This document shows, piece by piece, positions 1,802-47,436 of a stretch of DNA of 52,196 nucleotides. The translations under genes and the position numbers were made by a program. Within the stretch, counting starts at the first letter, position 1, and each line of letters opens with the position of its first letter. Under the pieces are notes generated by a model, which saw only the letters and a program-made list of their open reading frames with translations, was not told where the DNA came from and did no database searches. The DNA is from a virus (taxonomy: Duplodnaviria; Caudoviricetes), in the IMG/VR virus record IMGVR_UViG_3300047552_000351, positions 1 to 52,196 of that record. One strand, 5' to 3'.

Positions 1802-1802
1802 G

Positions 1803-2017: not shown

Positions 2018-2018
2018 G

Positions 2019-4079: not shown

Positions 4080-4470
4080 GTATTACGGCCTCATAGTCAA
4101 CGAATGGAAAACTAATTACTTTTACGTAGTAAGTACCAGGAACAGATGCGAAAAACTCTAGTTGTCCGTCGAATACTGCGACAGTTTCTTCTCCGATGGT
4201 TTCATTATACACAGTAACTATGCTAGGGACTGGCATGTCTGAAAACGTAGCAGCATCAGAGCCAGATGATAATATAGTCGTTTTGTCTAGCGTAGTTTCT
4301 TGTAGTGGGCGTTCTTTTGGTTCGTCGTTATCGAAGTACCACGACCTACTGTTATACTCAGTATCGCATATTCCCATTTGCGGCCTTGTATTTAGCGAAA
4401 CGAAATCATCGTCCGAATTTGCGATGTACTTTAGTATCTCCCCGCTTGCTTTATCGTAAACAGTTTTCAT
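4069..4470 (-). CDS. putative tail fibre-associated protein
   Basis: VYDKASGEI N-terminus, coupled to the tail tip gene. Confidence 0.6.
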   Translation of the reverse strand: MKTVYDKASGEILKYIANSDDDFVSLNTRPQMGICDTEYNSRSWYFDNDEPKERPLQETTLDKTTILSSGSDAATFSDMPVPSIVTVYNETIGEETVAVFDGQLEFFASVPGTYYVKVISFPFVDYEAVIHAV

Positions 4471-6650: not shown

Positions 6651-8993
6651 TCACCCGAATAATATAAGATCCATTATACCGCGCTGATAGTCGATATAAA
6701 TGCCAGTTACAACGAAGTATTTTTGATTGTAGTTTAGACGTGTGCTTGTAATCTCAACGATTGATCCGATATCGACTTGGCCAGCATATTTAATTGCTCC
6801 ACCTATTGAAACAGACACGATGTCCCGACGTACTCCGAAAACCGAAACCCGACGCGCCGATTCTGCGTACGCTTGAGATATCGAAGCAAACAATGATTGA
6901 TCGTTGGTTTTTTCCTCAGCCAATAGCCGAGTCGTCTTGATAGCTGAACTAGCGTATGTCTGCGCCCTCGAAGCCTCCGAAAACCACGCAGCCTTATCAT
7001 CTGTCACAACTCCTGCTAGTGTTTTTTTGTCTTGTACCGCGTAATTGATATCCGCAGCCGTTGTAATTTGCCAGATTGGGTACTCCGCATCTGGTCTCTT
7101 TTCAATGTTAATGATATGGTTATCGTTGAATACGGCTGACGGCGTAGCTGGAGGATCGTCTATCCGTGCGATTCTGAATCTATTAAGATTATCGAAACCC
7201 CACCACGCGCCGACAGTTGAGCAAATTCTATCGATAACGCTTGCAATAGTTTCCTCTTGGCTGACTATAACACCAAGCGGCGCAGCGCACTTTTGATCTA
7301 ACGTCGTGAAGTCGGACTCTACCCAATCAACGTTGGCGGCATACCCTTGCTCAGTTAGGATTCGCTTGATAATGCCTGATGCGCTGCAATCAGTATGGTC
7401 CCAATCCTCAGCAACGCACGCGCTGACCGTGCCGTACGGACTGCTGCCAAGTCTGAAAAATGTACCTTCCGATCCAGAGTAGCACTTAAAGTACCCAGCA
7501 CCAGGACCCTGGCCAGCGGCTTGTAAATTGGTCGCGTTGGTATAATCTGGCGTCGATCTGAAGTATTGCGCACCAGCATCGAACACGTTAAGTACCGCGC
7601 CCGTAATTGGCTTGTCTGACACTTGGTAGATTAGGTGTGACGTGTTGACAAGTACCGGAGACATCAGCGATATTCGCCCATAAATTCTCGGCTTTGACTG
7701 CCCTTTGATATCGTCTGGCGTTCCTTCGATCCCTAATGGAAGCGCATTAGTGCCTGCATATTTTGCAGTCGAAAGCGACTTGTCGAGCGTGTTGGCGCGG
7801 TCTTTTAGTCGCACAGAGACCCGTTGCCGTTCGAACGACACGGAGTCAATGGTAGCTTTTAGGACTGTCGTAAAAAGTCCATATGAGTCTGTTCTGTCGC
7901 CATACTTAAGCGTAAGCGTGCGACCGTCGTAATAATCATCGGCAAGGTACGCAAGCGCACCGTCAGTGTTTATAAGCGTCAACTCGCCTAGCGATACCTG
8001 CTGACGACCTCCAACAACTACGCCCCCGGCATCGCGTCGGAATGTGGCAGGATTCTCGATCCTGGGCGCGTAAAACGTCCCGCTGTTGTCGTACCCTCGC
8101 CCGCTAGAAAACCGATGCGTCACAACACTAGACGTGCCCGGATCGTAGGCTTCGATTTCAGCCAGGAATATGTAGCGCGCAAGTTCTGTTCCAGGTGTCA
8201 CTGGTATCGTGACCGTTCCCGATGCTGTAGCAACTGCTGATGCTGCTCCGGCAAGCTGTACTGATGTCGTAAGCGCTCCGGTCGCAGTCGCAACTGCAGA
8301 TGCTGACCCAGCTACGAAAATTGGCTGCGAAATAACAGTACCGCTTGCGGCCGCAACTCCGGACGCTGCGCCAGCCATAGTTATTGACGTTGTAAGAGAT
8401 GCTGATGCGGTAGTCACTGCGGTTGCGTTTGACGCTGCCGTAATCGATGTGGTCAGCCCGCCAGTAGCAGTGGCAACGGCAGATGGTGATGCATTAAGGA
8501 CAATCAGAGGAGTGTAGTAGACGGTAACGCTGACCGCATCTACCTGTGCGTATCCCCCTGCCGACAAGTTGGCCGAAAACAGAACTCCGAAATCGTTAGA
8601 ATTGACTTGTGCGCCTGTTATTTCTTGGCCCCATGTGTCTGACGATCCGCCATATGTCTTTACGGTATCGGTCGTCGGCCAGTTAGTACCCGTGTCGGCC
8701 TTATCGTCTTCCGACAACGAGCCAGGGCTTCCGAGCTTGATCCTGACGGATGAATCAACGATAGTTCCGGATACACGATTTCGCTCTACGTTGACCTCCA
8801 CGCCGTCAACACGCACGTCAGTTGGCAGACTAAATCCGTACGTGTCTGTTAGACAGTAATTAGTGTCTCCAGACGTTACGCAGTAGGTACGTTGGTCGTT
8901 TGAAGTTAGAACATTAGAAACTAACTGCCACGCATTTGCACCATACTGCGTGTCATTCGCAGCGGCAGACGGCGAGTTAGTGACTGATGCCAT
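6651..8993 (-). CDS. tail tip/baseplate hub-like protein with N-terminal Ala/Thr/Ser repeats
   Basis: GELTLINTDG, KYAGTN...EGTPDDIKGQSKPRIYG, SVGAW-like motifs; downstream of the tape measure. Confidence 0.75.
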   Translation of the reverse strand: MASVTNSPSAAANDTQYGANAWQLVSNVLTSNDQRTYCVTSGDTNYCLTDTYGFSLPTDVRVDGVEVNVERNRVSGTIVDSSVRIKLGSPGSLSEDDKADTGTNWPTTDTVKTYGGSSDTWGQEITGAQVNSNDFGVLFSANLSAGGYAQVDAVSVTVYYTPLIVLNASPSAVATATGGLTTSITAASNATAVTTASASLTTSITMAGAASGVAAASGTVISQPIFVAGSASAVATATGALTTSVQLAGAASAVATASGTVTIPVTPGTELARYIFLAEIEAYDPGTSSVVTHRFSSGRGYDNSGTFYAPRIENPATFRRDAGGVVVGGRQQVSLGELTLINTDGALAYLADDYYDGRTLTLKYGDRTDSYGLFTTVLKATIDSVSFERQRVSVRLKDRANTLDKSLSTAKYAGTNALPLGIEGTPDDIKGQSKPRIYGRISLMSPVLVNTSHLIYQVSDKPITGAVLNVFDAGAQYFRSTPDYTNATNLQAAGQGPGAGYFKCYSGSEGTFFRLGSSPYGTVSACVAEDWDHTDCSASGIIKRILTEQGYAANVDWVESDFTTLDQKCAAPLGVIVSQEETIASVIDRICSTVGAWWGFDNLNRFRIARIDDPPATPSAVFNDNHIINIEKRPDAEYPIWQITTAADINYAVQDKKTLAGVVTDDKAAWFSEASRAQTYASSAIKTTRLLAEEKTNDQSLFASISQAYAESARRVSVFGVRRDIVSVSIGGAIKYAGQVDIGSIVEITSTRLNYNQKYFVVTGIYIDYQRGIMDLILFG

Positions 8994-9458: not shown

Positions 9459-12400
9459 CTATGCTGAAAGCCTAGCATTTCGCTCAATCGTTGATAATCT
9501 ATCGTCCATACGCTCTAGAGATTGCACCATTCTTGGGTATGCCATTGCGTTACTATTGACGATTGCCTGCAGTTCTGTTTTAAGTTCGCCAATCGCTTTA
9601 GTTATCTTCTCGTCATCCTCACTGGTCATGATCCGCTTACTATTATTTGCATCGATGACTTGTGCTGGCTTTGCGAAATTAACGAGTTCCGGTCCCTTCT
9701 CTCCTACAAGCGCCAACCCGGCGCCGAGATAACCGCCAGATGCTGCTGCAGGAACGACATCGACGCCCATGTTTGCGGCCATCTTGTTAAGCTGCCGCAA
9801 CTGTGCTCGGTTCAATATGTTCAGGCCTTTGACTTCATCAATCAGAGTTGCCATCTGATTAACGGCCCGAGTTCGCTCGTATGCAAGCAGTTCGTTAAGC
9901 CGTTCGAGTTTTGCTATCGTCCGATCACGCAGCGTCTTGAGTGCTAGATTCTTTTCAGGGTCTGACAAGTCTTCGATGGCTTTTTGCGCCTTCGCCTGAG
10001 CCTTCGAAACTTTCTTGTCGTACAAGTCGTTGATATCCTGGCGTTGATTGTCGAACTGCTTAGAAATCCGCGTTAATTTGTTGTCGAGTGTGTCGTTGAC
10101 TGAATCAATACGAGATTGGAATGACTCGCGAAGTCGATCCATTTCGTCAGACTGTGCGCGTGATAATGCTCGGCTTTCAACCTGGAACGTGCGTTCCAGC
10201 GCCTTCATATCAGCGCTTTGCTGTTCCTTTAGTTGGTCGATCTTGCTTTGTACCGATACCTCGTTTGTCTGTGTATTTCCAAGCGCTTCGAGTTCTTTCT
10301 GGATGCGCTCGAACTCGGTAGCGTATGCCGTCGATCCGCCGAAGTATTGACGCAACAGGTTAAGCAATACATCTGCCTGACCGCTTACCTTTCCAGCTGC
10401 TTCAGCGTCACCACCTTTCGCAAGAGCAACCAACGTTGCATACTGTTGGCGGGCTTCCTTGATCTTGTCTTCCGGAGACAAACTCGACAGCGCGCCGGTC
10501 TTAAGTCCTTCGGCGTACTGCTTGATCTGAGCAAACGCGGATTTGAGTTGGTTCGCTATGTTTAGCTGATCCTGAAGCGCTTCCATTTCCGCATTCTGGG
10601 TTTTCTGTAGCGCGTCACGGCGTGCAGACTGCTGATCCTCAAGCGACCATGTGGCCTCTTGTTGGCGGTCCTCTAGCTGCCGCTCCGCACCCTTTAGGGC
10701 AGCCTGTATCGCGTCAATGCGTGCCTCTGCGGCGTCCCTAGCGGCGTTAGTGCGTGCTTCCTCTGCGCGGTCTACTGCGGCAAGCTTTCGATCACGCCTG
10801 ACGTTGATCGTTTCAATATCAGATTCCAACTGCTTGTTGATCGCGTTGGTTTTCCGCTGGATGCCCTTTTGTATTCTCTCAACTTGTTGATCATATACTG
10901 ACATGATGTTGTTAATCATGTCAGTAATGAGTTCTACGCCCTTTTGCGGATCATTAACGCCAGATTTGCGGTATTCCCTATATGCGTCAGTGGATGCTTG
11001 CAACTGCTGTTTGGCAAATTGTAACGGAGCGTTCCCTCCCTTTAGGTCGGCAATCTTGGAAGCGATGGTATTCTGCAGGTCTTCAATACCCCGGATCATA
11101 TCGTTCCAGAAATCGCGCAGCGAACTAAGCAGCACCTCGCCCTCTTGTCGGAGTATGCGCTTTCGTTCATCCGTCAGCGCTTTAAGCTTTTCGCCAAGTT
11201 GCGCAGAATCTATGTCTGCGCTGTTCTTGGCCATCTGGTCGATAATGCCTTGAATCTGCGTGTTGATGCTGTCGATTTCTTTCTGTTTTGCCGAGAGGTC
11301 GCCGCGCAGTATATCGGCCTGGGCGTTAAGATCTCCAAGTTGTTGACGCCACGACGCTACGTATTGTGCAGCCTTCGGCACGCCTTCCCAGCGCGCGATA
11401 AGGTCTTGATACTTGCTGATTTCTGAAAGCGTCGTATTCAGGAATCCAAGATTGGTATTTATCTCGGACTGCCGGATACTGCGATAAGCAGTTAACTTAT
11501 CGACATCGGCTTGCAGTGGGTCATTGACTGCTTTTTTGGCAAGAGCGGCACGGTTTGCAAAGTCTGATTCTACTTGCCCTAGCTTTGCGTCTAATATGTC
11601 TTTGAAATCATCGACAATTGTCTGAAGCTGTTCAGCATACGTCCCAAGCGGATTGATATAGTTTTTATACTTCTTTTCGAGTTCGTCGGCTGCGTCGGCT
11701 GCATCTGCGAATGCTCCAGACAACGCGACAACACGCGCAAACAGTTTTTGACCTTCTTCGGTAGTCGTGTCGATGGATAACGCGAGTTCGCGGAACCCTT
11801 CTTTGCTCGTCGGAAGTACTAGCCCGAGTTCTCCAAACTGTCGAGATATAGTGACCAGCGAGTTAGCATACTGCTCGCCAGCACTGAAGAAATTGGAGTT
11901 GAAATCCTCCATTGCGTTGCGTAGATTAGCAACTCCGCCAACAGCTTCAGTCATTGCTCTGGTAAGCGCATTCGCCTCAATGCCCATACCCGTGAACAGG
12001 TCACGCACCGCAACAAGGTCTTGATATACGGCAACGAGGTCGTCCAAGCTTCCTACAGCGTCTTCCATGAACTTGCCAACGCTAGACCCTGCCTCGCGCA
12101 TGATGATCGACTGGCGAACGATTTCTGCGCCTACGTCTTCGGCTTGACGGTTAACTACATCCTTGTACGACACTGCTGCAATGTTGAGTTGTTCTAGCGC
12201 GCCTTTTGCCTGGTTAATGCCAGATGCAACGCGAGTTAGAGTCTCGAACATTCCTTCGCCAACACGATTAAATGACTCTAGCTCGTCAATGTTTAAGGCT
12301 TTCGCCATGCGATCCGCAATCGCGCTAAACTGAGCAGAAAGGGCTTCCTGTAGTTCCTTTCCGGTTAGTTTCTTTCCGTCAGTGCCTTTCAGGCTTTGAG

Positions 12401-15400
12401 GATCAATGGAAACTGTGAACTCGGCAAGGCGCTTTTGGAATTCCATGCTCGAAATGCCGAATGCTTTTGCGCCCTCCTGTACCGCATCAGCGAGTGATCG
12501 GATCACCTTAGTGAATGCATCCTCTGTTTCCTGAGCAACTTGGCCTAGATACGTTTTTGTCTTAGACGATAGCGTCATACCGAATAGCTTAGTGGTCGTC
12601 GTGACATCGGTATAACTCTTTAGTTCTAACCCGCTTTTCAATACTTCGCTTAGCAGTTGCGGGTTAAGCGTCCCAATACCGAAGTCTGTTATTTTAGAAC
12701 GTGTATTCATGAACAACGTAGGCTCGCCAAACAATCCCTTATTGTTGTTGACCCATTTAACGTTTTGTCCAGTAAGAGCAGTCAGTGCGTTGACATTTAC
12801 GAGTAGGCTAGTAGTAGCGCCCTTAAGCGACGCGTCGATATTCTCTAACGCTTTCGTCATCTTGGCGCTATAGTCAAGATCCGCGCTGCTATTGTTCTTC
12901 AGTATTTCGAGACTATTCGAAATGCTTTGACTCTTGGCTGCTTCGTCGCCCGTAACGGTGCCAGTATTGACCGCAGTCGTTTTACCAACCGCGCCTTGCT
13001 TGCCAGGATTACCACCTCCCATGCCTACGCCAAACCCAAGCGCTGCCATTGTTGCCGCCATAGCGGCCATGCGTATCCAGGCAGAATAAGGTTCTCCGTT
13101 TGCTTGATTAGCAACGCCTACTGCTGCCGCAGCTTGTCCTTGCATCTGCTTTTGCGCTACGTCTTGTCCGGTAAACGTCCATCCAGCAACAGCCATCTGG
13201 ATATAGTTCGAAAGCGTCAACGCTAACTCGATCATGCGGAACGCTTTAGTAGCAGCCTGCATCGCGTTATAACCGCTCGTTCCTTCCTCGAAGAACGATC
13301 CAGCGGCTTGCGTTAGGTTGCCGTATTGGTGAATCTGCGCGCTTAACTGGTTCGACTGCTCGCGCTGAATAGCCGTCATCTTTTCAGCGTCTGGCATCGT
13401 CTTGTCGCTTTGTATCGACTTGATGCGCTGCTCGGACTGGTACATCGTCTCGTTATACTGAGCCAATCCTGCCACGACTTGACCAATAGCCGCGCCAGTC
13501 TTACCAAACGCTTCCGCCATTCCTTGCGCGCTCTGCTGAGCTTGGCGGACCATAGTTTGATAGTATTGGCCCATGCGGAGCACTTCGTCCTTTACCGCTT
13601 TTTCGGAGTCCGCTTGTTCCTTCTTGGCGGCGTTTAGTGCTTCGATTTCCGCCAGTTTCTTTTTTGCGGTCGCCTCTACTGCGTCCGCCTCTTCGTTGCT
13701 AAGCCCAACCAAAACCTCGCGCAAACGCTGTTCCTCGGACAGCAAGTTGTTTTGATCCTGCAACGCTGCAATCTGGTCGTCCAATGATTGGAGATAGTCG
13801 GCAATCGCCTGCGCGCTTCGTACCTTTCCGTCAGTTTCTTGCTGCTGCGCAGACGCGATGTCGCTCGCAAGTTGCGACGCCTTAGTGCCTGATTGGATCT
13901 CAAGTTGTGCGCGTTGTGCGCTAAGTTGTGCTAGATTCGCCTCGGCTTGCTCGCGCTGACTGGTCAGTTGTAAATGCTGTTGCTCAGTTAGTTTGTACTG
14001 GTTTTCTGCGGCAATGATTGCGTTAATGTTGGCCAGCTTTACGCGAGCGTACGTTTCTTCGTTGGAAACCTTAGAAAGTTGCAAGCGCAGCAATTCCTGC
14101 TGCATCGCCTTTTCTTGCTCTGCGGCTTGCGTCAAATAAGCGACTTTATTAGCACCTGTGGCTTGACTAGATTCGCGCGAAACGGTCGCGTCGAATTCCT
14201 GGATGCGCGCTTTTTGTTTCTCTATTTGAGTATCGATCTCAGCATTGCGCTTATCCATCGCGGCTTTAGTCTTCGCTTCCATTGTGTCAAGTTCAGCGCT
14301 GAATGTCTCAAATTGGGATCGCGTTAACTGCTCCTGCTGCTTTGGCGATAGCGTGTCTGCTAGTAGCCCATTCGGGTACTTTGCTTTAAGATCGCGAGCG
14401 GCCTTGTCGTATGCTGCTAGATAGTCCTTAACCCATCCTGCACCAGTGCCGTATTTTGCTAGATTGCCTTCCCCGCCATTGTATGCGGCAAGTACTCTAA
14501 CAAGGTCTCCATCATACTTCTTATACAGTCGCGCAAGTTCTTCGACTCCGATTCTGATATTTTCCATTGCATTGTTGATATTCCCTTTATTGCCGAAGTA
14601 TTTCGGCATCAACTGCATAACGCCAGTCGCGCCTTTGTCTGATACTGCCCCCTGGTTAAAGTTAGATTCGAGTTTAGCGACAGTCACCGCAAGCTGTTCA
14701 GGTATGCCAGCCTTTCTAGCCGCCTGCGCAATTGCTGCGATGGTATCCTCTGCCTTCTTTCCGACGTTTTCTATCTTATAGCCAACGTCTCCAAAGCCTT
14801 TAGACATCTCTGTTGTTTGCGCAGTGACTTGCTTTTCTTGTGCAATCATCTGTTGGAGAAGTTTGTCGGCTTCGTCAAACTGCTTTTGTGCGAAGTCGAT
14901 ATCCCCTATTCCAGCGCCTCTAGCCTTAAGCGTTACTAACTTGGTTCCAAGTTCATTAACCAGTTGCGCTTGTTCCTTTAGCGTATTCGTGCTGCCAGTC
15001 GATCGCCATCGGTCAAAATACGACGCAAGCGAGTTCATACCGTCAGCAAGCGTTTTGACCATTCCGGATGCCGTCGCAACCTCCGCCATGAATGCCTGCA
15101 AGCTTGTCGTTAATCGCTGGAATGATTGCCCAAACGTTGACGGCAATGCGCGCGCCTGTTCGTCAAACGATTGGCGCATTTTTACCATTGCGTCCGCTAT
15201 TGTGTCAGCGGTTAGCTTTCCCTCTGTTGCGAGGCTTTTAAGCTGGCCTATAGGCACTCCGATTGCCTTGGCAAGTTCTGCCATCAGCGTTGGCGCATTC
15301 TCCATTAGGCTTCTAAACTCTTCGCCTTGGAGTTTGCCTGACGCCATAGCCTGCGAGAATTGAAGGATTGCGCTTTGCGCCTCTTGAGTAGAAGACCCAG

Positions 15401-15866
15401 AAATGCGCAGCGCTTGTGCCATTGTCTTGACAATCGCGAGCATGTCAGCCGCGCTTCGTCCTGTTCCTTCGAACGCACGCGCCATGCGCGTATACAGCGC
15501 TACGTTAGACTCTAGGTCGCTTGCTGTTTCTTGGCTGATTCTGAACAGTTCACGATAGACGCCAGCAAACTGCGTTGCGCTATTCGACACAAGACGCAGA
15601 CGGCCTTCTAGTAACTGGAATCGGTCGGCAGCTTCAATGGCAGCGCGTGTTGCAGCGATTGCCGTCCCTACCGTCACATACGCAGCAGCCGTAGCCGCAG
15701 CAGTTCGGCCAAGAGAAGAAAGCGAACGCTCTTGATTGGAAGCGGAAGAGGATGAGTTTTTTAGAGACCGATCAAGCTTGTTGACTTGATTGTCTAAATT
15801 GGCAATCTCAGCGGACGCATTCTTGCCATCCGCCGAGATTTTAATCGTAAGTCCTAAATCTGCCAT
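9459..15866 (-). CDS. tape measure protein with a lytic transglycosylase (SLT) domain
   Basis: 2135 aa, Ala-rich helical. Tape-measure domain QFSQAMASGKLQGEEFRS. SLT motifs ESNF, GVMQLMP and LAAYNGG. Confidence 0.95.
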   Translation of the reverse strand: MADLGLTIKISADGKNASAEIANLDNQVNKLDRSLKNSSSSASNQERSLSSLGRTAAATAAAYVTVGTAIAATRAAIEAADRFQLLEGRLRLVSNSATQFAGVYRELFRISQETASDLESNVALYTRMARAFEGTGRSAADMLAIVKTMAQALRISGSSTQEAQSAILQFSQAMASGKLQGEEFRSLMENAPTLMAELAKAIGVPIGQLKSLATEGKLTADTIADAMVKMRQSFDEQARALPSTFGQSFQRLTTSLQAFMAEVATASGMVKTLADGMNSLASYFDRWRSTGSTNTLKEQAQLVNELGTKLVTLKARGAGIGDIDFAQKQFDEADKLLQQMIAQEKQVTAQTTEMSKGFGDVGYKIENVGKKAEDTIAAIAQAARKAGIPEQLAVTVAKLESNFNQGAVSDKGATGVMQLMPKYFGNKGNINNAMENIRIGVEELARLYKKYDGDLVRVLAAYNGGEGNLAKYGTGAGWVKDYLAAYDKAARDLKAKYPNGLLADTLSPKQQEQLTRSQFETFSAELDTMEAKTKAAMDKRNAEIDTQIEKQKARIQEFDATVSRESSQATGANKVAYLTQAAEQEKAMQQELLRLQLSKVSNEETYARVKLANINAIIAAENQYKLTEQQHLQLTSQREQAEANLAQLSAQRAQLEIQSGTKASQLASDIASAQQQETDGKVRSAQAIADYLQSLDDQIAALQDQNNLLSEEQRLREVLVGLSNEEADAVEATAKKKLAEIEALNAAKKEQADSEKAVKDEVLRMGQYYQTMVRQAQQSAQGMAEAFGKTGAAIGQVVAGLAQYNETMYQSEQRIKSIQSDKTMPDAEKMTAIQREQSNQLSAQIHQYGNLTQAAGSFFEEGTSGYNAMQAATKAFRMIELALTLSNYIQMAVAGWTFTGQDVAQKQMQGQAAAAVGVANQANGEPYSAWIRMAAMAATMAALGFGVGMGGGNPGKQGAVGKTTAVNTGTVTGDEAAKSQSISNSLEILKNNSSADLDYSAKMTKALENIDASLKGATTSLLVNVNALTALTGQNVKWVNNNKGLFGEPTLFMNTRSKITDFGIGTLNPQLLSEVLKSGLELKSYTDVTTTTKLFGMTLSSKTKTYLGQVAQETEDAFTKVIRSLADAVQEGAKAFGISSMEFQKRLAEFTVSIDPQSLKGTDGKKLTGKELQEALSAQFSAIADRMAKALNIDELESFNRVGEGMFETLTRVASGINQAKGALEQLNIAAVSYKDVVNRQAEDVGAEIVRQSIIMREAGSSVGKFMEDAVGSLDDLVAVYQDLVAVRDLFTGMGIEANALTRAMTEAVGGVANLRNAMEDFNSNFFSAGEQYANSLVTISRQFGELGLVLPTSKEGFRELALSIDTTTEEGQKLFARVVALSGAFADAADAADELEKKYKNYINPLGTYAEQLQTIVDDFKDILDAKLGQVESDFANRAALAKKAVNDPLQADVDKLTAYRSIRQSEINTNLGFLNTTLSEISKYQDLIARWEGVPKAAQYVASWRQQLGDLNAQADILRGDLSAKQKEIDSINTQIQGIIDQMAKNSADIDSAQLGEKLKALTDERKRILRQEGEVLLSSLRDFWNDMIRGIEDLQNTIASKIADLKGGNAPLQFAKQQLQASTDAYREYRKSGVNDPQKGVELITDMINNIMSVYDQQVERIQKGIQRKTNAINKQLESDIETINVRRDRKLAAVDRAEEARTNAARDAAEARIDAIQAALKGAERQLEDRQQEATWSLEDQQSARRDALQKTQNAEMEALQDQLNIANQLKSAFAQIKQYAEGLKTGALSSLSPEDKIKEARQQYATLVALAKGGDAEAAGKVSGQADVLLNLLRQYFGGSTAYATEFERIQKELEALGNTQTNEVSVQSKIDQLKEQQSADMKALERTFQVESRALSRAQSDEMDRLRESFQSRIDSVNDTLDNKLTRISKQFDNQRQDINDLYDKKVSKAQAKAQKAIEDLSDPEKNLALKTLRDRTIAKLERLNELLAYERTRAVNQMATLIDEVKGLNILNRAQLRQLNKMAANMGVDVVPAAASGGYLGAGLALVGEKGPELVNFAKPAQVIDANNSKRIMTSEDDEKITKAIGELKTELQAIVNSNAMAYPRMVQSLERMDDRLSTIERNARLSA

Positions 15867-34017: not shown

Positions 34018-35253
34018 CTATAGCGCGCTCGCATTGAATGTTAATTTGCCGCTATACGATGGTTTAATATAACCATCTAGCGCGTATCGGATAGCGTCCA
34101 TGCAATGATTATTCTTGTCTATTATATCACTCAAAATCTCTCCTGTTTTCGAGTCAGTTTTGTACGAGTACAATCGCGCCTCTTCTGCTGTATGCTTGCA
34201 CCGCTCATGAATAACGATTTTATCGAACGAACGCAGAAACGCTATACCGTCTTCAACGCTACCTGACCACTTGCGCGCTGCGGCTATATTGAATCCGCGC
34301 CTTCGCATGAATGAGATTGTTTCAGGTCTAGCTGAATCCGCCTTGATTGGCCATCGTTCAATTTCTGGAACGCGCATAAACATTGACGGCAAGTCCTCAA
34401 GTTCGACGCCAATACCCCATGCTTCGCGATCTATAAACAAGCATCTATCCTTGATGTAACAGCGCACAACTGCGCTTGGGTCTTGACTAAAGCCCCAATC
34501 TGCGCCGATGAATATGCGCCCCGCATCGCTTGGCGTGTCAAACTGATCTATGATGTACTTGCCTTTAAGCACCTGAGCATCGGTATGCTTTCGGCACTCG
34601 CCTAACCATACGTGAGCGTATGAGTCTGGATCGGTGCGCTGCATCCATGCTCGCTCTGTTTCTAGCGATGTCTCGCTAAACCATGGATTCTCATCGTAGT
34701 TTACTTTGCGCACGACTGACCCAGGGGGAGGATCAAGAGCAAGTGTATAGATTGGGTCCGTTTCCTGGTCTGGGTTAAACGTTGCCCAGATTTCAGCGTT
34801 CTTTTTGCGAATCGTTGGCGTTAGCGTCTGAAGGCTGCGAGACGATACTGTTTGTGCTTCTTCCAGCCAGCATATATCTACGCCTTCCAGTGATTTAAGG
34901 GCGCTGGCATCATTAGACATGCCACGCAAGCCCTTAAACATGATCTCTGCGCCAGCACGGCTGTAGATGCGCTGCGACTGCACGTCGAACACAGACGAAA
35001 GGCCCAAAACCTTTATCTGGTCGCTTAAGAGCGTATAAACGGAGTCATTGATACTGTTCTGTAGCTCACGCGCACAAAGCGCCCTTACGGGCCTTACAGA
35101 GGACCTTACTACCAGCATTCGAGCGAATGTATATGACTTGCCGCTACCTCTCCCGCCGTAGGCTATCTTGTATCGCGTGCCTGGACGTGACGGTAGGAAT
35201 TCAAGCGCCCATGGCGCGAATATAGAATCACCAGCCGAGTTTTTCGATGTCAA
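34018..35253 (-). CDS. terL: terminase large subunit (PBSX family)
   Basis: GGRGSGKS, WLEEAQ, TFNP, GADWGFSQDP, NHCMDAIRYA. Confidence 0.96.
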   Translation of the reverse strand: MTSKNSAGDSIFAPWALEFLPSRPGTRYKIAYGGRGSGKSYTFARMLVVRSSVRPVRALCARELQNSINDSVYTLLSDQIKVLGLSSVFDVQSQRIYSRAGAEIMFKGLRGMSNDASALKSLEGVDICWLEEAQTVSSRSLQTLTPTIRKKNAEIWATFNPDQETDPIYTLALDPPPGSVVRKVNYDENPWFSETSLETERAWMQRTDPDSYAHVWLGECRKHTDAQVLKGKYIIDQFDTPSDAGRIFIGADWGFSQDPSAVVRCYIKDRCLFIDREAWGIGVELEDLPSMFMRVPEIERWPIKADSARPETISFMRRRGFNIAAARKWSGSVEDGIAFLRSFDKIVIHERCKHTAEEARLYSYKTDSKTGEILSDIIDKNNHCMDAIRYALDGYIKPSYSGKLTFNASAL

Positions 35254-35653
35254 TCGGATCGCCGTTTATGTTGAGCTGGACCGGCCCACCACCCGGACCA
35301 GACACTTCGACTTGATCGATAAACGCGCGCGTTGACTTGCCTAGCAGCTCTGCCGCCTTGAGCCTGTCGCGCATCGATGTCGGGCGGTCGCCGTCCATTT
35401 CCTCGCCGTTTGCAACGCGAGTCCAGAACTCGCGCAGTTCTGCGACGGTCATAATCGTGCGCTTTTCCTGCTTCGCATTAAGCATCTCAAGCTGTTCTTT
35501 CACATAGGGTAATTTTAGGAGGTCGGTTGCCGTTGTATGGGCAGACTTTGGCGAATAGCCAGCATCGATAGCTGACTGGCGAGCGTTCATAGTTTCGAAG
35601 TATCGGAGCGCGAACTTTCTGTATCGTTGGCGCGCGCCTTTAGTATCTGACAT
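35228..35653 (-). CDS. terS: terminase small subunit
   Basis: NARQSAIDAGYSPKSA...DRLKAAELLGK. Confidence 0.92.
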   Translation of the reverse strand: MSDTKGARQRYRKFALRYFETMNARQSAIDAGYSPKSAHTTATDLLKLPYVKEQLEMLNAKQEKRTIMTVAELREFWTRVANGEEMDGDRPTSMRDRLKAAELLGKSTRAFIDQVEVSGPGGGPVQLNINGDPIDIEKLGW

Positions 35654-39245: not shown

Positions 39246-39797
39246 TTATGCTGGACGGTGCGCAACTAATGGCACGTTCTTATGAATCCACTGAAGCCAC
39301 TTGATCGCAAGAGCGGCTATCTTGGCGGCCCGATCAGTTCCATTTATGCACCTGCGCGCGTTGTTCCAGTCCGTATGTCCTGGCCGGATGTAGTCGCTGA
39401 TTTTTTTGCCAGTGAAATGCCCGTCTTTGAACCCTTTAACCAATATATCTACGGACGTATCCCATTCAAGCGCAAGATCTGGATCTTGAGTCAATGGAAC
39501 TCCAAGCAAGCGCTCGAACTTCGCATAATTCTCCTTCCATGTGATCTGAACAAGTCCGCGCCCGTACCATGGGTAATAGCGAAGCCTTCGTTTACGCCAC
39601 CATTCCGGCAACCAATACGCCTCGCGCACTGGCTCAAACGTCCCATTCGTTTCATGTTCTACGGTAGCAACCGTGTATGCGCACTGCTCGTCTGTGAAGC
39701 CTTCACCACGGCATGCCTCGATGATGTCTTTAACTCGTTCGATTTTATCCACTGCAATAATCCCCCGTATTGCAAACGCCAACAGATACGCAGACAC
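39246..39797 (-). CDS. endolysin, glycoside hydrolase family 19-like
   Basis: AY..AT..HET...P..E, YGRGLVQITWKENY, NARRCINGTDRA. The real start may be GTG at 39752. Confidence 0.88.
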   Translation of the reverse strand: MSAYLLAFAIRGIIAVDKIERVKDIIEACRGEGFTDEQCAYTVATVEHETNGTFEPVREAYWLPEWWRKRRLRYYPWYGRGLVQITWKENYAKFERLLGVPLTQDPDLALEWDTSVDILVKGFKDGHFTGKKISDYIRPGHTDWNNARRCINGTDRAAKIAALAIKWLQWIHKNVPLVAHRPA

Positions 39798-40015
39798 TAG
39801 TCATGTCCGTCATCTGCAACTTCAAATCCATTTACAATGCTTGCAGCTTTAGAAAGACCGGTTGCAATCCCTGGAGGCGAGCACGGACCTATGAACGTTG
39901 ACATCTTGTCATAGATGGATTGACTTGCGGCGACTAACGCCGCATTCCACGCGCGCCTCTCTGCGTCCTCGTCTACTAACTTAAACTCGTTTTTATAATC
40001 TTGAAACGTCACCAT
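39797..40015 (-). CDS. hypothetical protein
   Basis: GGAGG RBS, coupled to neighbours. Confidence 0.6.
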   Translation of the reverse strand: MVTFQDYKNEFKLVDEDAERRAWNAALVAASQSIYDKMSTFIGPCSPPGIATGLSKAASIVNGFEVADDGHD

Positions 40016-40581
40016 TAGACCTCCAGCTTTCGCGCGATGAACTGCGCTGATTGTTGTTTATAGGTTTTGTGTGCTACACCACGACCGCACAGCTTAAGCG
40101 CCCGCTCTAGTGCGACCTGCATCCATGTGAACTCTTCCGGCTCGTCTTCCACTTCGTCCAGTAGCTCTATTCGGAACGCGTCTACGCCTAAACCTGTGTT
40201 AACGTCGAACTTACTAGCCACCATAACCGCATCGACTGCTGTGCCTCCGAGGTGCATGGTCGCAATGGCGAAGTCACGTCCGCATCCAATCGCGTGCGGC
40301 TTTGATGGATCGAGTGGCAGCATTTGCATACCACCTTGCAGCAAGTACGGAAGCCCATCAAAGTCGATCAAAATAGCTGAAAACTCTTCAAGGTTTCCAG
40401 GCTCAGCGCCTTCGCCATTGAGCCACGAAACAACGTCGTACGCGTCATTAAACGACCCTGCGAAGGCAAGCATTCGGCCGTCTTGAAGCGTAAATATCTT
40501 GCGGGCTTCTATTGGCATCCCTTGGTCGTTTGCAAGTCGATCCGCTGCGAGTATCTTTCCGTCCCACGCTACGGTGGTCAT
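40015..40581 (-). CDS. HslV/proteasome-beta-like Ntn-hydrolase
   Basis: M-TTVAWDGKILAAD, K..., AFAGS, AIGCG (canonical AIGSG), D..TG. Confidence 0.8.
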   Translation of the reverse strand: MTTVAWDGKILAADRLANDQGMPIEARKIFTLQDGRMLAFAGSFNDAYDVVSWLNGEGAEPGNLEEFSAILIDFDGLPYLLQGGMQMLPLDPSKPHAIGCGRDFAIATMHLGGTAVDAVMVASKFDVNTGLGVDAFRIELLDEVEDEPEEFTWMQVALERALKLCGRGVAHKTYKQQSAQFIARKLEV

Positions 40582-41257: not shown

Positions 41258-41635
41258 TCAATTAAGCGGCACATGGCCACGGTTGCGCATACAGTTAGTG
41301 TATACCGTGCGATACACGTCACCACTTCGAAACACGCCTGAGACACCACCAAGTGCTGATCCTATTGCTGACCCTGGGACGCTTGCGATGCCGAGCCCTG
41401 CTATTCCGCCAACGATCGCACCGCCTGCGAGTCCGTAAGCGATCTCATCGGCTCCGATGCCTGCGTATGCCGCAGCGATGATTCTGCACTGATCCAGATC
41501 TTTGCGGATCGATCCGGGCTTCGCATCTGTCATGTGGTCTAGTGCTGGCTCGAATCCTGACAGCTGCGCAAGTCCGCTACACCCTGCGCACAGTGTACCA
41601 CACATTGCGATACTTAAAACCCAAAAAGATCGCAT
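41258..41635 (-). CDS. glycine-zipper lipoprotein
   Basis: Lipobox-like LCAGC; DLDQCR...GxxxG zipper...NCMRNRGH. Confidence 0.75.
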   Translation of the reverse strand: MRSFWVLSIAMCGTLCAGCSGLAQLSGFEPALDHMTDAKPGSIRKDLDQCRIIAAAYAGIGADEIAYGLAGGAIVGGIAGLGIASVPGSAIGSALGGVSGVFRSGDVYRTVYTNCMRNRGHVPLN

Positions 41636-41946
41636 TGGGAGTTGATTGGCTTTAAGTTATTTGCAATTCTAGCCATGTCAACTATACGAATTTGCTCTGA
41701 CCATTCTATTGTTTGGAATCCTAGGGAGTGCATTTGAAGGTCGTTTTTAAGGATAGCAATTGCAATTTGTTTGTAGCTTGGCGCTCTGCCTGACGCAGAT
41801 ACTTTTTTTGGTACTTCGTCCGGTATATCGCTAGAATAGCACCGCTTGCGCCATGTGTTGACGTATTGACTTACCCTCTCGCTTGCGCAGTTCCCAGGAC
41901 TGAATTGCTCTTTCCGCCTCTGCATTTGCCAGTAACCGCTGCTCAT
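41614..41946 (-). CDS. small protein resembling the C-terminus of IbrA/DUF3440
   Basis: W..R.Y..DIPDE...APSYKQIAIAILKND...LGF. Confidence 0.7.
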   Translation of the reverse strand: MSSGYWQMQRRKEQFSPGNCASERVSQYVNTWRKRCYSSDIPDEVPKKVSASGRAPSYKQIAIAILKNDLQMHSLGFQTIEWSEQIRIVDMARIANNLKPINSQCDLFGF

Positions 41947-42247
41947 CTGTAAGGAATCCCCATGCTTGTCGTGTTATATCTTCTGGACATCTAATTGCCA
42001 ATGCGCAAGCCGCATGACCTACCCACGCTTTCCTGTTCATCTGGTAATCAGTCAATGCGTTGTCGCAACTGTTAGGCCATTCGTAAATTACCCTCATCAT
42101 ATAAGATCCATACAATACATGATCTCCGGTAAATTTAATTGCTTTTTCAAGCATTTGTTTTCTGTTGTCTACATCCCCCCACATGTTGTGCCTAATCTCT
42201 TCCCACTCGTCGATGCTAACCCAAACCCTCTGAAGGTTCCTCATCAA
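41831..42247 (-). CDS. hypothetical protein of the Ibr cassette
   Basis: Trp-rich 138 aa ORF overlapping both neighbours. Confidence 0.7.
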   Translation of the reverse strand: MMRNLQRVWVSIDEWEEIRHNMWGDVDNRKQMLEKAIKFTGDHVLYGSYMMRVIYEWPNSCDNALTDYQMNRKAWVGHAACALAIRCPEDITRQAWGFLTDEQRLLANAEAERAIQSWELRKREGKSIRQHMAQAVLF

Positions 42248-43154
42248 GTTGGTCCTCTACGTTGTCCATATTCTCGACATCCCAAGACTTGGAAAAGTCT
42301 TTGCCTAAGAAAAGAGAAGCCAAACCAGTTATCTGTTTCAGTCGTAGTAGTTCATCTGGGCTCATTCCAATGTGTTTGCATATCCATGCGTCGCCTTTCC
42401 CCATTTCGACAAGTTCGGCAACAATCACAGACATCAGTTCGACGTTGTGCGTTCCACGCGCTCTGTTGTGCCTGATTGTTGACGCCATTCTGTCGTGGAC
42501 TTCTTTTTGAAGCACAACAACAGGCAACATTCCGTTTTCACGCTCTACAAGCGCCTTATTGTTCTTAAGGGTAAGGTATCGGTGAAATCCGTCTACAACG
42601 ACATACATATCACGATCTGGATCGTACACAGTGACGACTGGCTGCGTGTACCCATCCTCCATGATGGATGTTTCTAATAGAGCCATTTCTGGAGGAGCGA
42701 CGCGGTTCGGGTTGTAGTCGTTTGCGGTCACCTTTTCAATTGGAACCGGCCTGACGAAGTAAACCGGAGACTTCCACGGTGCTGCGTATGATCCGTCTTC
42801 CTGATGCAATTCCTTCCCAGACAACGGAGGGTTGAATACGCAAATTAGCACAGTTTCAACGTACGCAGTAAATACATGCGCGTCGTGCTGGTCTAACACG
42901 TACGTCGTATCTGGCTCAATTTCGAATGTTTCTCCTGTTGATTCGTTAAGTATTTCGCCGTGCCCGCTAACACAAAAGCAAGACTCCAGATGGTTCTTAT
43001 AGTGCCATCTCCACGAACCAGGATTAACCACTGTTTTAGTAAGAGTGTAACCCATTCCATCAGATTCGAGCAATATCCTATTGCTAACAAACCCCCCTTT
43101 TTGGCATTCTACAACTCGGTCTTTTTGAAGTTCTGAAACTTTTACAACTTTCAT
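42216..43154 (-). CDS. ibrB: ectoine-synthase-like cupin fused to an IbrB/ParB-like domain
   Basis: aa 1-124 EctC-like (SNRILLESDGMG, HYKNHLE, YVLDQHDAH, CVFNPPLSGKELH). Remainder ParB/IbrB-like (ANDYNPN, SIMEDGYTQP, VDGFHR, STIRHNRARG). Confidence 0.88.
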   Translation of the reverse strand: MKVVKVSELQKDRVVECQKGGFVSNRILLESDGMGYTLTKTVVNPGSWRWHYKNHLESCFCVSGHGEILNESTGETFEIEPDTTYVLDQHDAHVFTAYVETVLICVFNPPLSGKELHQEDGSYAAPWKSPVYFVRPVPIEKVTANDYNPNRVAPPEMALLETSIMEDGYTQPVVTVYDPDRDMYVVVDGFHRYLTLKNNKALVERENGMLPVVVLQKEVHDRMASTIRHNRARGTHNVELMSVIVAELVEMGKGDAWICKHIGMSPDELLRLKQITGLASLFLGKDFSKSWDVENMDNVEDQLDEEPSEGLG

Positions 43155-44479
43155 TTGTGCGGTCTAAGGATAGATGAGTACTTGCGTTGGATAGCGCGTT
43201 GACGCTTTTGCTGCTCTTGAGTCTGAGACAGTCCCAAGTATTTACACGTATGGTCGTTCTTTAGGATTGTGATTGCAAATCGTTTCCAGCTTGTCACCAT
43301 GCTGTTATGGAACGGAAGAGAATCAAGGTGATCTGGCGGGACTTTAATAACAACTCGTCTGAGTTCGTTTCCTCCGTGCGGAGTTACGCCATTAAAGTGA
43401 AACCGTGTTCCTGTTTTGTATAGTTCTGCAATTACATTTTCAGGCAATCCGCGCCCCACCCTACCCCAGAACATTATCGATTGGATGAAGCGCGATTTAA
43501 AATTTACCGCTGACTGCCTTGGAAGAGTTGCAAGTAAGAATTTTACAAAGCTTTTCCATGTATGTCCTTTTGGTAGCGTAAACGACGAGTAGTTGAGCTG
43601 CTTTCCGTAAGTTGCGATAAAGTTAGCGCCTCCGACTCTAGCGCACAGCCTTGCCCAGATTGGCGCATCTATCACCCGGTACATACCGAGGCTTGACTTT
43701 GATTCAGACATAAAAGGACTGGCAACTCGCATTTTCTTGATTGGGACGCCAGCCATATAGAACACGTCGTACAGTTTGTTATAGTCCCATCCGAACTTAG
43801 CGTTTGCTGTCCATATGTCTTCAGTCTTCCAATCGTATATTGGGTAGCAGTTGTAGGTATGGTCCGTGTTTTTCTTTGTCCACATCGCACCTTTCATCGT
43901 TTCCTTTTGCTGATTCATGATCGCTCTGAAACGGTTCAATGATTCAGCCGTACGGATTCCTATTAGGTTCGCACAGGATACATCTTGACTGTACCATTCC
44001 GCGAACATGTCCCAGAACTCATCGTAGTTCATGCCTGGTATAAACTTTTCACCGAAAGGATGATTAGACATGTTGACGATGTAGTCGTCTTCAGGCATTG
44101 GGCGAATCCACCGATGCTCATCGTCAATTCCCCAGCACTGCCACGCTATTTCATAGCTTGACACAGTGCATGGGAGAGTGATAGGCATGCAGCACCAATA
44201 GATGTCTAGGTACTGCCTGTTGTCTTTTAGTATTCGGTGCATGAACTCATACGAGTGCGTGTAGTTCGCCTCGTTGTCGAGAATCTGCACACCTATTTTT
44301 TTGTTTATGTTGTTAGCTTTTACGTAATCAAGGACAAGGTTAAGAAGAACGCCACTATCTTTTCCGCCAGAAAAAGACACGTAGACGCGCTCGAAGTTTT
44401 CAAAAATGAACTTTAGTCGTTCTTGGGAAGCGTCATAAACGGACGTTTCGTTGAACGACCGATAAGCTGAATTGCTCAC
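43151..44479 (-). CDS. ibrA: IbrA/YbdN-like PAPS-reductase-family protein (DUF3440)
   Basis: SFSGGKDS PP-loop, GIRTAESLNR, YPIYDW..EDIW, MRVASPF, ILKND; GAGAGG RBS. Confidence 0.9.
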   Translation of the reverse strand: MSNSAYRSFNETSVYDASQERLKFIFENFERVYVSFSGGKDSGVLLNLVLDYVKANNINKKIGVQILDNEANYTHSYEFMHRILKDNRQYLDIYWCCMPITLPCTVSSYEIAWQCWGIDDEHRWIRPMPEDDYIVNMSNHPFGEKFIPGMNYDEFWDMFAEWYSQDVSCANLIGIRTAESLNRFRAIMNQQKETMKGAMWTKKNTDHTYNCYPIYDWKTEDIWTANAKFGWDYNKLYDVFYMAGVPIKKMRVASPFMSESKSSLGMYRVIDAPIWARLCARVGGANFIATYGKQLNYSSFTLPKGHTWKSFVKFLLATLPRQSAVNFKSRFIQSIMFWGRVGRGLPENVIAELYKTGTRFHFNGVTPHGGNELRRVVIKVPPDHLDSLPFHNSMVTSWKRFAITILKNDHTCKYLGLSQTQEQQKRQRAIQRKYSSILRPHK

Positions 44480-44504
44480 AAAGACCTCTCGTCTAAAATG
44501 AAGC

Positions 44505-44536
44505 TACACAGTACCATACTGTGCGAGACTTTTCAA
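44505..44536 (-). promoter_or_regulatory. putative sigma70 promoter with overlapping inverted repeat for the Ibr cassette
   Basis: TTGAAA-17 nt-TACTGT with TG extension; inverted repeat CACAGTA-cca-TACTGTG at 44507-44523. Confidence 0.5.
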
Positions 44537-45405
44537 GCGTATTTACGGCGCAGGAAGTCCAGGCTAACGACGCACTCATCGAACTGACCGTTATGCACTT
44601 CGTTTAGAACGAAGATCCCGCGAAAGTGGTTGTTAGCTTGAGGGCCCAGATAATCCTCGTCGTGCAGGTAGCACGATCCAGCTATGATCCCGGTTAGCTG
44701 GCCCCCATCTGCTTTTGTCGCGTAGGCGATAGCTTTTCCTTGTTGGTGCCCTGCTATGCAGCTCTGATGCTTCTTAGTCAAAAGCGTTGCGGCGCTTGTG
44801 ATTGGACGCCCCATAACGCCAGAAACGAAGTAATGACTAAAGCAAATCCCGTCTAGTTCGACAACCTGCAAGAATTCGTAAGTTGTCCATCCTGCGGCAT
44901 CGTATCCAAGGTCATCTAGGCATAGCAAACCATCAAGTTCTGGCTGAAGTTCTGTTGCACGGCATATTCTGTGTTCATGGTTTCCGTACAAGATATTGCG
45001 TGACTCTACGCCAGCGCCAATGCACGCAAACCCGAGACGCTTTGCAACGTCAGACGCGATCTTAATATCTTTCTTGTACCTCCTGCCTTCGAACGACTTT
45101 TTGCCCTTATCATATGACGACAGGCTTGGCATGTCCGCCAGATCTCCAAGTTGGACGACGGCGTATGGCTTCTTTTCCTTGATATATCGACATATCCAAT
45201 CGATGTGTCGCAGGTCTACTCCTTCTTTAACCTGTAGGTCTGGAATGATGATGTACCGCTTAAACAGATGAGAACTGAAGTTCTCGCATGGTGCTGGCTT
45301 CAGCCTACGCGCAACGCCTCGCCTATCAATCCCAAACCTGCGAGCGACTGCACCATAAGACCCTAGTTCGGAATAGGCGTCTTCTAGGTCAGATAATTTA
45401 ATCAT
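44533..45405 (-). CDS. calcineurin-like metallophosphoesterase with an N-terminal HTH
   Basis: PDLQ, GDLAD, GNHE, SH and GHQQ motifs; N-terminal GAVARRFGIDRRGVARRL. Confidence 0.85.
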   Translation of the reverse strand: MIKLSDLEDAYSELGSYGAVARRFGIDRRGVARRLKPAPCENFSSHLFKRYIIIPDLQVKEGVDLRHIDWICRYIKEKKPYAVVQLGDLADMPSLSSYDKGKKSFEGRRYKKDIKIASDVAKRLGFACIGAGVESRNILYGNHEHRICRATELQPELDGLLCLDDLGYDAAGWTTYEFLQVVELDGICFSHYFVSGVMGRPITSAATLLTKKHQSCIAGHQQGKAIAYATKADGGQLTGIIAGSCYLHDEDYLGPQANNHFRGIFVLNEVHNGQFDECVVSLDFLRRKYA

Positions 45406-46755: not shown

Positions 46756-46991
46756 TTCGCAAACCCGCGATTTGCTGGCTGGACGTTCCACTCGTCAGCA
46801 ATTCGAAGGTATGCGTAATTAAGGACCATCAGAGCTGCTGTAATACGATCCTTGTCATAAATCAACTGGTCTCCGTTCACCATTTCTGGATGATTGATTG
46901 ACTGCCATACCCGTTCAATCAGTTCCATGGTAGTCATATCAGCGAGTTGCGCTGCTATTTTTTCGGCTTGTTCTGTTTGTTCAACTGACAT
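46752..46991 (-). CDS. hypothetical protein
   Basis: ATG overlaps the upstream TGA. Confidence 0.55.
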   Translation of the reverse strand: MSVEQTEQAEKIAAQLADMTTMELIERVWQSINHPEMVNGDQLIYDKDRITAALMVLNYAYLRIADEWNVQPANRGFAN

Positions 46992-47436
46992 CAAAGTGCT
47001 TCCCATAACAATTTTTGACCTTGCAATAGACTTTTTGTGTCTATTCTTGGACGTGATTTTGTATTCCAATTGCCTCCACCTGCAAAACCTATTAATCTCC
47101 ATCCCGCACCCCTTAGGCTTGCCCCGCCTTCGTCAGGTAATGTGTAAGTTATCAGTCGTTTATACCCTAAATTCTTTGCAACTCTCCATGCTGCTCCATA
47201 CAACATTGAACATGCGTTTTTGTGCCGTCCGTGCAGACTCTATTAACTTCAAGAGTCCATCCGTCATCGTTACCCCTAGCAACAGGCCTTCCAATTATCG
47301 CAACTCCTCGCACTATCGAGTTTTCATCACTAACAGCCAAGCAGAACTTGCACCCAGGGACTGGAGCGTGATGCCTATGCTTAGTTTCAACAAAAGCATT
47401 TGCCTCGTCTAGGTTTATTGGCGTTATTTCGAGCAT
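46991..47436 (-). pseudogene. XF1762-family (Mom-like, GNAT fold) gene split by a 1-nt frameshift
   Basis: ORFs 47167..47436 and 46991..47206 join as ...EVNRVCTDGTK|NACSMLYGAAWR...ITYTL..E.GASLR.AGW if one A is added to the A5 run at 47217-47221. Confidence 0.8.

Follow-up and report, generated by a model that had tools for sequence, protein, structure and literature searches.

The 52,196-nucleotide (nt) virus record IMGVR_UViG_3300047552_000351 (IMG/VR, Caudoviricetes), taken here whole, estimated to be 78% complete and called the window below, carries four overlapping genes on its minus strand, which are built around an IbrA/IbrB-like pair. To our knowledge, IbrA/IbrB (YbdN/YbdM) are among the most widespread gene pairs of phages and enterobacteria without known biochemistry. 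The four genes are inherited as a unit and their catalytic residues are under strong constraint. We tentatively propose that their products form one multi-protein, clamp-tethered, DNA-directed enzyme, which would act at or behind the replication fork. The IbrA/IbrB pair was already known, and the fusion of its IbrB member to an ectoine synthase (EctC)-like cupin has been annotated since the record of Mycobacterium phage Gaia. New here are the obligatory partner proteins C and D, the clamp-docking-like tail of D and the fusions that involve D, as well as the retained EctC active site.

All four open reading frames (ORFs), named A to D, were found where the original prediction, made from the letters of the sequence, had placed them. 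Its domain calls, namely a PAPS_reduct plus DUF3440 protein, an EctC-ParB fusion, a Trp-rich protein C and a DUF3440-like protein D, were borne out. Successive genes overlap by 4 nt (A/B), 32 nt (B/C) and 116 nt (C/D). The features of the cassette are listed below, with protein lengths in amino acids (aa).

43151-44479, minus strand: gene A, IbrA-like enzyme of 442 aa (PAPS-reductase/PP-loop plus DUF3440), with a GTG start and a GAGAGG ribosome site
44354-44371, minus strand: PP-loop motif SGGKDS, IbrA residues 37-42, invariant in two alignments
42216-43154, minus strand: gene B, EctC-cupin::IbrB (ParB/Srx) fusion of 312 aa
42780-43154, minus strand: EctC-like cupin domain, B residues 1-125, with Pfam, NCBIfam and PDB EctC matches
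42216-42770, minus strand: IbrB-type ParB/Srx region, B residues 129-312, with the DGFHR and RMASTIRHNRARG motifs and then a putative helix-turn-helix
41831-42247, minus strand: gene C, 138 aa (137 aa from the ATG at 42244), Trp-rich, all-helical model, unnamed family
41614-41946, minus strand: gene D, 110 aa, overlapping gene, mini copy of the C-terminal half of DUF3440
41623-41637, minus strand: QCDLF, D residues 104-108, putative beta-sliding-clamp-binding-like motif at the C-terminus

To determine whether the four genes travel together, on which the original prediction had made itself depend, we scanned IMG/VR with a profile of C, obtained 195 confirmed stretches and kept 80 loci for counts. 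Besides C, which served as the query (80 loci), ParB was found in 80 of these loci and D in 79; 77 had IbrA, and 77 had EctC. Of the genes that flank the cassette in the window, the phosphoesterase gene was seen once and the lipoprotein gene never. The absences of cassette genes all fell at contig ends except in locus L067. There, the EctC domain is replaced by a separate gene (3868-4617) for a 1-Cys peroxiredoxin (AhpC-TSA plus 1-cysPrx_C). This peroxiredoxin gene lies between IbrA and a cupin-less IbrB, a curious position beside a protein of the sulfiredoxin (ParB/Srx) fold. Two loci (L077 and L078) have the gene order B-C-D-A and retain the set. IbrA proteins of the viral loci are 69-93% identical to that of the window, and in the IbrA tree the 18 EctC-linked proteins and the peroxiredoxin variant form one clade (support 100/99). 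In protein databases, each of the 120 top-ranking relatives of B likewise carried the EctC domain. Thus, the four genes are conserved together elsewhere, across the viral loci and in cultured phages, far beyond chance.

Among cultured phages, a tblastn search found the full-length fusion only in the Mycobacterium phages Gaia and Nebkiss and in Pseudoalteromonas phage XCL1123, where it always adjoins IbrA. Gaia/Nebkiss (gp103-107) and XCL1123 share all four genes with the window, at identities of 67-68% for IbrA, 63.5-64% for the fusion, 58-62% for C and 44-47% for D. In Gaia, an inserted GIY-YIG-like gene separates B from C, and D (L001 5549-5836; gp107) is annotated from a later start. In XCL1123 (L002), D (5213-5518) is unannotated and the cupin-ParB gene (3998-4928) is split into two coding sequences in different frames at the domain border. 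The original prediction knew of no characterization of this architecture. No characterization of the cassette was found in the literature searched (subscription papers and bioRxiv supplements lay outside the search), but the architecture is not unseen, since the GenBank records of Gaia and XCL1123 label the fusion 'ectoine synthase/ParB multidomain protein'. No near-identical DNA was found in the phages or Escherichia coli genomes searched.

More distant relatives outline how the cassette may be composed. Seven contigs of metagenome-assembled genomes (MAGs) from diverse phyla carry relatives, and the set persists in MAGs of several phyla. In three MAGs, Microcystis phage Mwe-JY13 and Pseudomonas phage Amjad_SA, C occurs in the order ParB-C-IbrA with a cupin-less IbrB and a distant IbrA (33-39% identity). 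IbrA, IbrB and C are thus a wider core to which one clade added the cupin and D. In lactic acid bacteria phages, IbrA and IbrB are accompanied by an SNF2-like helicase, and C and D are missing.

Protein A matched PAPS_reduct (PF01507, 1.1e-9), DUF3440 (PF11922, 1.9e-52) and phrog_2302 (9e-110). The stretch SGGKDSG is invariant in IbrA alignments, and the PP-loop together with the GIRxxES, YPIYDW and ILKNDHTCKY blocks is invariant even when IbrA of lactic acid bacteria phages is included. A CC-x6-C-x10-C cysteine set is invariant in the EctC-linked clade only; as a general iron-sulfur (Fe-S) site it was rejected, because outside the clade only one of the four cysteines (C97, in IbrA of lactic acid bacteria phages) is kept. 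A search of the PDB with the IbrA profile returned no solved relative below E 0.4. Since A combines PAPS_reduct, SGGKDS and DUF3440 and adjoins a ParB/Srx partner with a 4-nt overlap, A and B are assigned as an IbrA/IbrB pair. By family matches, IbrA/IbrB of E. coli ECOR-9 and YbdN/YbdM of K-12 are likewise a PAPS_reduct plus DUF3440 protein adjoining a phrog_2159-type ParB/Srx protein, and DUF3440 was found in E. coli among the control genomes. Compared with these pairs, the window cassette adds the EctC cupin fused to IbrB, plus C and D, and its IbrA is only ~40% identical to plain phage IbrA. The K-12 ybdNM operon is repressed by YbdO, according to the available text of PMC9068703.

Outside the cupin, B matched the ParB-like family phrog_2159 (7e-78), and its residues 101-295 are 58-62% identical to proteins annotated as IbrB in Streptococcus and Lactobacillus phages. 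DGFHR and the RMASTIRHNRARG block are invariant in 26 fusion proteins, while the helix-turn-helix that follows is putative, having been read from the sequence. Canonical ParB CTPases carry a GERRxRA-type arginine patch. B is not assigned to them, as its motif is DGFHR and its match to ParB_N (PF02195) is below the cut-off (0.0011; 19.4 bits vs. 26.3), and no ParA partner turned up among the ORFs scanned. Against solved structures, the IbrB profile gave weak matches to ParB (4umk) and Noc (7ol9) and a weaker one to SbnI (5uje). SbnI and SerK are serine kinases of the ParB/Srx fold, SbnI being also a regulator, and provide precedents for small-molecule chemistry in this fold; their similarity to B is weak, covers the DGxHR region and has E-values of 0.0025-0.4, slightly poorer than those of ParB and Noc.

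The N-terminal domain of B (residues 1-125) matched Ectoine_synth (PF06339; 1.8e-39, 135 bits vs. a cut-off of 27), exceeded the curated cut-off of NCBIfam NF009806 (137.2 vs. 128 bits) and hit the EctC structures 5bxx and 5onm at ~1e-24. Residue roles (iron, substrate and product ligands) were taken from the available text of PMC6344544. The iron ligands E57, Y85 and H93 are invariant in 26/26 fusion proteins, as are the substrate/product-site residues R26, T41, Y52, S24 and F107. In the numbering of EctC (PDB 5bxx, 5onm-5ono), the window cupin shares the iron ligands Glu57/Tyr84(85)/His92(93) as well as Arg25, Thr40, Tyr52, Glu57, Ser23 and Phe106, and it retains the C-terminal lid, which is likewise invariant in the 26 fusion proteins. 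It is ~44% identical to P. lautus EctC (45/103 aligned positions, counted by hand) and differs from EctC in being fused to a ParB/Srx protein. It also departs from EctC at two of the six ligands of N-gamma-acetyl-2,4-diaminobutyric acid (N-gamma-acetyl-DABA, or N-gamma-ADABA): four are identical, while the family has a fixed Phe22 in place of Trp21 and a fixed Thr39 in place of Asn38. Searching the 52-kb record for ectA/ectB with TIGR02406 and TIGR02407 gave no match. Orphan EctC-type proteins with unknown substrates exist, as the same source (PMC6344544) describes in its available part, and we read the cupin as one of them, a putative active cyclodehydratase for a related but different small substrate.

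Protein D is a true overlapping gene and a paralogue of the IbrA C-terminus. Its match to the DUF3440 C-terminus was weak in the profile search (4.4e-5, below the cut-off), and the relation was confirmed by hhalign (93.4%, E 2.5e-7). In 79/79 loci the ATG of D aligns with residue 1, and in 78 of them an in-frame stop stands immediately before it, which makes a C-D frameshift fusion unlikely. The two genes overlap by 113-143 nt in 77/79 loci, and within the overlap the conserved residues of C and those of D occupy complementary halves. D is under-called by gene callers (48 clusters vs. 543 for C). It consists of the DUF3440-like part, a variable linker and a terminal segment with an invariant Gln and a near-invariant Leu, ending in QCDLF in the window and in QLELPL, QLELF, QIDMF, QMNLL or QISLF in relatives.

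According to the available text of PMC12867686, the beta-clamp-binding consensus is QL[SD]LF and the Mor/MuC family has the form Qx[D/E][L/M]F. The QCDLF tail fits the latter and qualifies, as a sequence motif, as a candidate terminal peptide of a beta-clamp client, for which a QL[SD]LF-like pentapeptide or a QLxLxL hexapeptide was sought. When the strict pattern was required within the last 12 residues, 71/76 D ORFs of viral loci had it and four more ended in a QLxLx[LI]-type peptide. The remaining one (L082, 4074-5333, 420 aa) is fused in frame to a sliding-clamp homologue (phrog_947). In a 522-aa ORF of a Chlamydiae MAG (L088, 6335-7900), D is instead fused to the IbrA N-terminus; either fusion could be an assembly or frameshift artefact. 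After clustering at 80% identity, the motif was present in 14/15 clusters, while 2000 permutations of the last 35 residues of D gave a mean of 0.51 and never reached 14. Mu MuC/Mor and clamp clients such as Pol II, Pol IV, Hda and MutS likewise bear a short terminal Qxx[LM]F-type peptide after a variable linker. D has no similarity to Mor/MuC, being a DUF3440 fragment whose link to the clamp is read from the motif. In two D-less loci, clamp-motif-like ends were seen on other proteins, QGGLFDA on IbrA of L087 and QADLY on C of Microcystis phage Mwe-JY13 (L096), and such cases are too few to judge.

Protein C contains 7 Trp in 138 residues and had no match in family libraries, although its family is large (543 clusters at 90% and 735 at 50% identity); it was absent from plasmids. 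Its AlphaFold2 model, built from a 21-sequence alignment, is confident and all-helical (predicted local distance difference test score, pLDDT, 91.8), and the alignment has ~47 invariant columns, many of them polar, including Cys61, His78 and Cys87. Fold searches returned a best E of 2.1 against the PDB (Foldseek), a best Z of 4.7 in a wide VIA-align search (root-mean-square deviation 3.9, 83 residues aligned) and no usable match in Atlas. BFVD returned only a protein of 116 aa that is closely related to C in sequence (65% identical) and is probably the XCL1123 orthologue. C is not a copy of the DUF3440 N-terminal half (hhalign probability 0.1%). Its own QAVLF end was not counted as a clamp motif because the same bases encode the invariant Arg-Cys-Tyr of D.

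The neighbors of the cassette also concern DNA replication. In 50 of the 72 loci with room for it, a superfamily 2 (SF2) helicase gene (ResIII plus Helicase_C) begins no more than 150 nt from where the D match ends, often with a methyltransferase gene behind it; the helicase is also found beside the cassette relatives of Pseudomonas phage Amjad_SA. The wider flanks contain primase-helicase, exonuclease, Erf, Sak4, RecE and methyltransferase genes. Phage clamp genes occur within 6 kb of the cassette in 10 loci, directly upstream of IbrA in L083. In L058, a second, different PAPS-reductase-family gene (phrog_424, 7959-8747) lies just downstream of the helicase of the cassette. The clamp-docking-like tail of D and the frequent helicase partner, both absent from the original prediction, point to replicating DNA as the place where the cassette probably works.

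If the proposed clamp-tethered enzyme exists, its parts could cooperate as follows. The ParB/Srx and helix-turn-helix part of B would bind DNA, and probably a nucleotide. IbrA, as a PP-loop ATP pyrophosphatase, would adenylate a carbonyl or carboxyl group to which a nucleophile is then joined. The EctC-like cupin, with its iron site and lidded small-molecule pocket, would make or reshape, by cyclodehydration, a small group resembling an N-acyl-diamino acid, which may be the piece to attach or one already attached and flipped out. D would bind an IbrA-type partner through its DUF3440-like fold and hook the complex to the sliding clamp, with C as a presumed third core subunit. In sum, phage DNA that has just been synthesized would receive a covalent mark.

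Several observations weigh against this proposal. The 80 loci are dominated by one lineage, so that the counts are not independent: the ParB plus C sequences form 17 clusters at 80% identity, one of which holds 69/87 sequences. The strict motif occurs in just 26 of the 48 D clusters of an independent database set; ~10 more end in xLF-type peptides (by hand reading of the list), 12 have nothing similar, and D of Gaia lacks a clamp-like tail. Neither the SF2 helicase nor a clamp gene is present in the window. The DUF3440-only model is unusable (pLDDT 56.7), and a free small molecule is a better match than DNA for the closed, lidded EctC pocket. Neither Gaia nor XCL1123 is known to have a modified base. 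Furthermore, IbrA and IbrB reportedly activate prophage gene expression (work ascribed to Sandt in 2002), and this sole genetics of the family is not about modification.

By gene content, the record is a temperate, siphovirus-like genome. Its other main features are as follows.

1785-2999, plus strand: integrase
34018-35653, minus strand: terminase, among structural genes on the same strand
39246-39797: endolysin
44506-44524, minus strand: hairpin with a weak T tail in the 53-nt gap upstream of IbrA, scored only as terminator-like
44533-45405: NinI-like metallophosphoesterase

Genes for RusA, a primase, a repressor and a split Mom-like protein were also found. The Mom-like gene (phrog_1384, 46991-47436, minus strand) is divided into two overlapping ORFs in different frames, 47167-47436 covering profile positions 20-99 and 46991-47206 covering positions 105-166, the split reflecting gene decay, a frameshift or a sequencing error. 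A PhoH-like gene (2996-3709, minus strand) adjoins the integrase gene, and the tape-measure gene (9459-15866, minus strand) is very long (2135 aa). An HslV-family peptidase gene (phrog_1040, 40015-40581, minus strand) sits between the cassette and the endolysin gene. A 125-aa lipoprotein-like ORF (41258-41635, minus strand), which is glycine-zipper-rich and has a signal peptide with Cys, overlaps the end of D by 22 nt; being absent from 80/80 related loci, it is local cargo outside the cassette.

The cassette is richer in AT than its surroundings, as had been predicted. Its GC content is 0.452, that of the record 0.501, and just 0.8% of stretches of the same size have so low a value, consistent with an acquired module. 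A promoter of its own, also predicted, was not supported: promoter-like sites numbered 7, against 7.2 expected, and none lies in the gap (44480-44532), which holds only the hairpin and the GAGAGG ribosome site ahead of the IbrA GTG.

This setting bears on the main alternative, a rather unlikely one in our estimate, according to which the cassette couples the activation of late or prophage genes to replication: IbrB would bind DNA like a ParB/KorB-type regulator, D would bring the clamp, and the enzymes would tune or license activation. Clamp-linked activation has parallels in MuC of phage Mu and in gp33/gp55 with gp45 of T4. The cassette of the window follows the RusA and NinI-like phosphoesterase genes and precedes the lysis region, which is the position of Q in lambda, and no other late regulator was found in the window; in XCL1123 the cassette lies just upstream of the portal gene. 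Most loci, however, have it within a replication/recombination module and not at an early-late border. The QCDLF tail of D recalls the near-consensus clamp motifs QHDLF and QPDLF that late transcription by Mu MuC needs (available text of PMC12867686). Gene activation is, as said, the only genetics reported for the family, and SbnI is a ParB/Srx protein that is both enzyme and regulator, but the strict conservation of three enzyme active sites is difficult to reconcile with a plain activator. Near the cassette, neither convincing parS-like repeats nor a repeated palindrome for binding turned up, and no promoter-like target was identified. The clamp-tethered enzyme and replication-coupled activation could both be true together.

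We consider it doubtful that the cassette encodes a pathway for a small-molecule or nucleotide-derived metabolite, in which a ParB/Srx kinase would act on an amino-acid-like substrate, the cupin would cyclize it and IbrA would ligate or activate it, yielding a signal, a protectant or an anti-defence molecule. The pocket and lid residues of EctC are kept, orphan EctC-type proteins are known (PMC6344544, in its available part), the ParB/Srx part weakly matches the serine kinases SerK and SbnI, and one relative (L067) has a 1-Cys peroxiredoxin in place of the cupin. Nevertheless, the clamp-like tail, the helicase partner, the DNA-binding ParB relatives and the replication-gene context point to DNA. 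The record has no EctA or EctB, and the replacements of Asn38 by Thr and Trp21 by Phe imply that the substrate is not plain N-gamma-acetyl-DABA, which also counts against such a pathway.

Phosphorothioation of DNA in the manner of Dnd or Ssp, with IbrA as DndC/SspD, IbrB as DndB and sulfur from a host cysteine desulfurase, appears very unlikely. A PP-loop enzyme of the PAPS-reductase family (an ATP pyrophosphatase) with a ParB-like partner and a motor ATPase often nearby recalls DndC/DndB and SspD/BrxP, that is the Dnd, Ssp and type 4 BREX systems (PMC12839542, as far as its available text goes), and the four cysteines are invariant in this IbrA clade. In PADLOC, A showed only weak similarity to DndC and BrxP, and B, C and D gave no match. 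The DndC similarity extends over IbrA residues 172-240, but the equivalog TIGR03183 scored 25.6 bits over residues 172-225 only, far below its cut-off of 290.4. Nothing in Dnd or Ssp corresponds to the cupin, C or D, which the cassette has along with DUF3440, and of the cysteines only C97 persists in IbrA of lactic acid bacteria phages. A desulfurase (DndA), DndD and DndE were not noticed in the gene list of the record, for which no dedicated search was made. Least probable of all is a modification of RNA or transfer RNA (tRNA) that alters the translation of phage genes: many PP-loop enzymes do modify RNA or tRNA (TilS, TtcA, ThiI), the PP-loop has weak similarity to TtcA and LarE, and an effect on expression without a promoter-level mechanism would fit the phenotype reported long ago for IbrAB, but no RNA-binding domain was detected in the cassette proteins and their partners (ParB, SF2 helicase, clamp motif) relate to DNA.

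Returning to the clamp-tethered enzyme, a more specific and distinctly improbable version of it is that IbrA/IbrB modules ride on the clamp and write a DNA hypermodification not described before. IbrA would adenylate a base or a carboxylate, and the fused cupin would make a small group derived from an amino acid, a cyclic amidine (ectoine-like) or something related, which would be joined to fresh phage DNA, with D as the clamp hook and C as an essential subunit of new fold. If this were true, the mark would license late gene expression, explaining the old 'co-activator' phenotype. For the IbrA/IbrB family, the cassette provides a handle in the form of an accessory enzyme with understood chemistry (cyclodehydration of an amide and an amine), and further handles are the unnamed C family, with its 735 clusters at 50% identity, and an overlooked overlapping gene with a clamp-hook-like tail. 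The cultured phages Gaia (Mycobacterium smegmatis mc2 155) and XCL1123 make it a testable question whether the cassette, acting in step with replication, is a DNA modifier, a MuC-like gene activator, or both.

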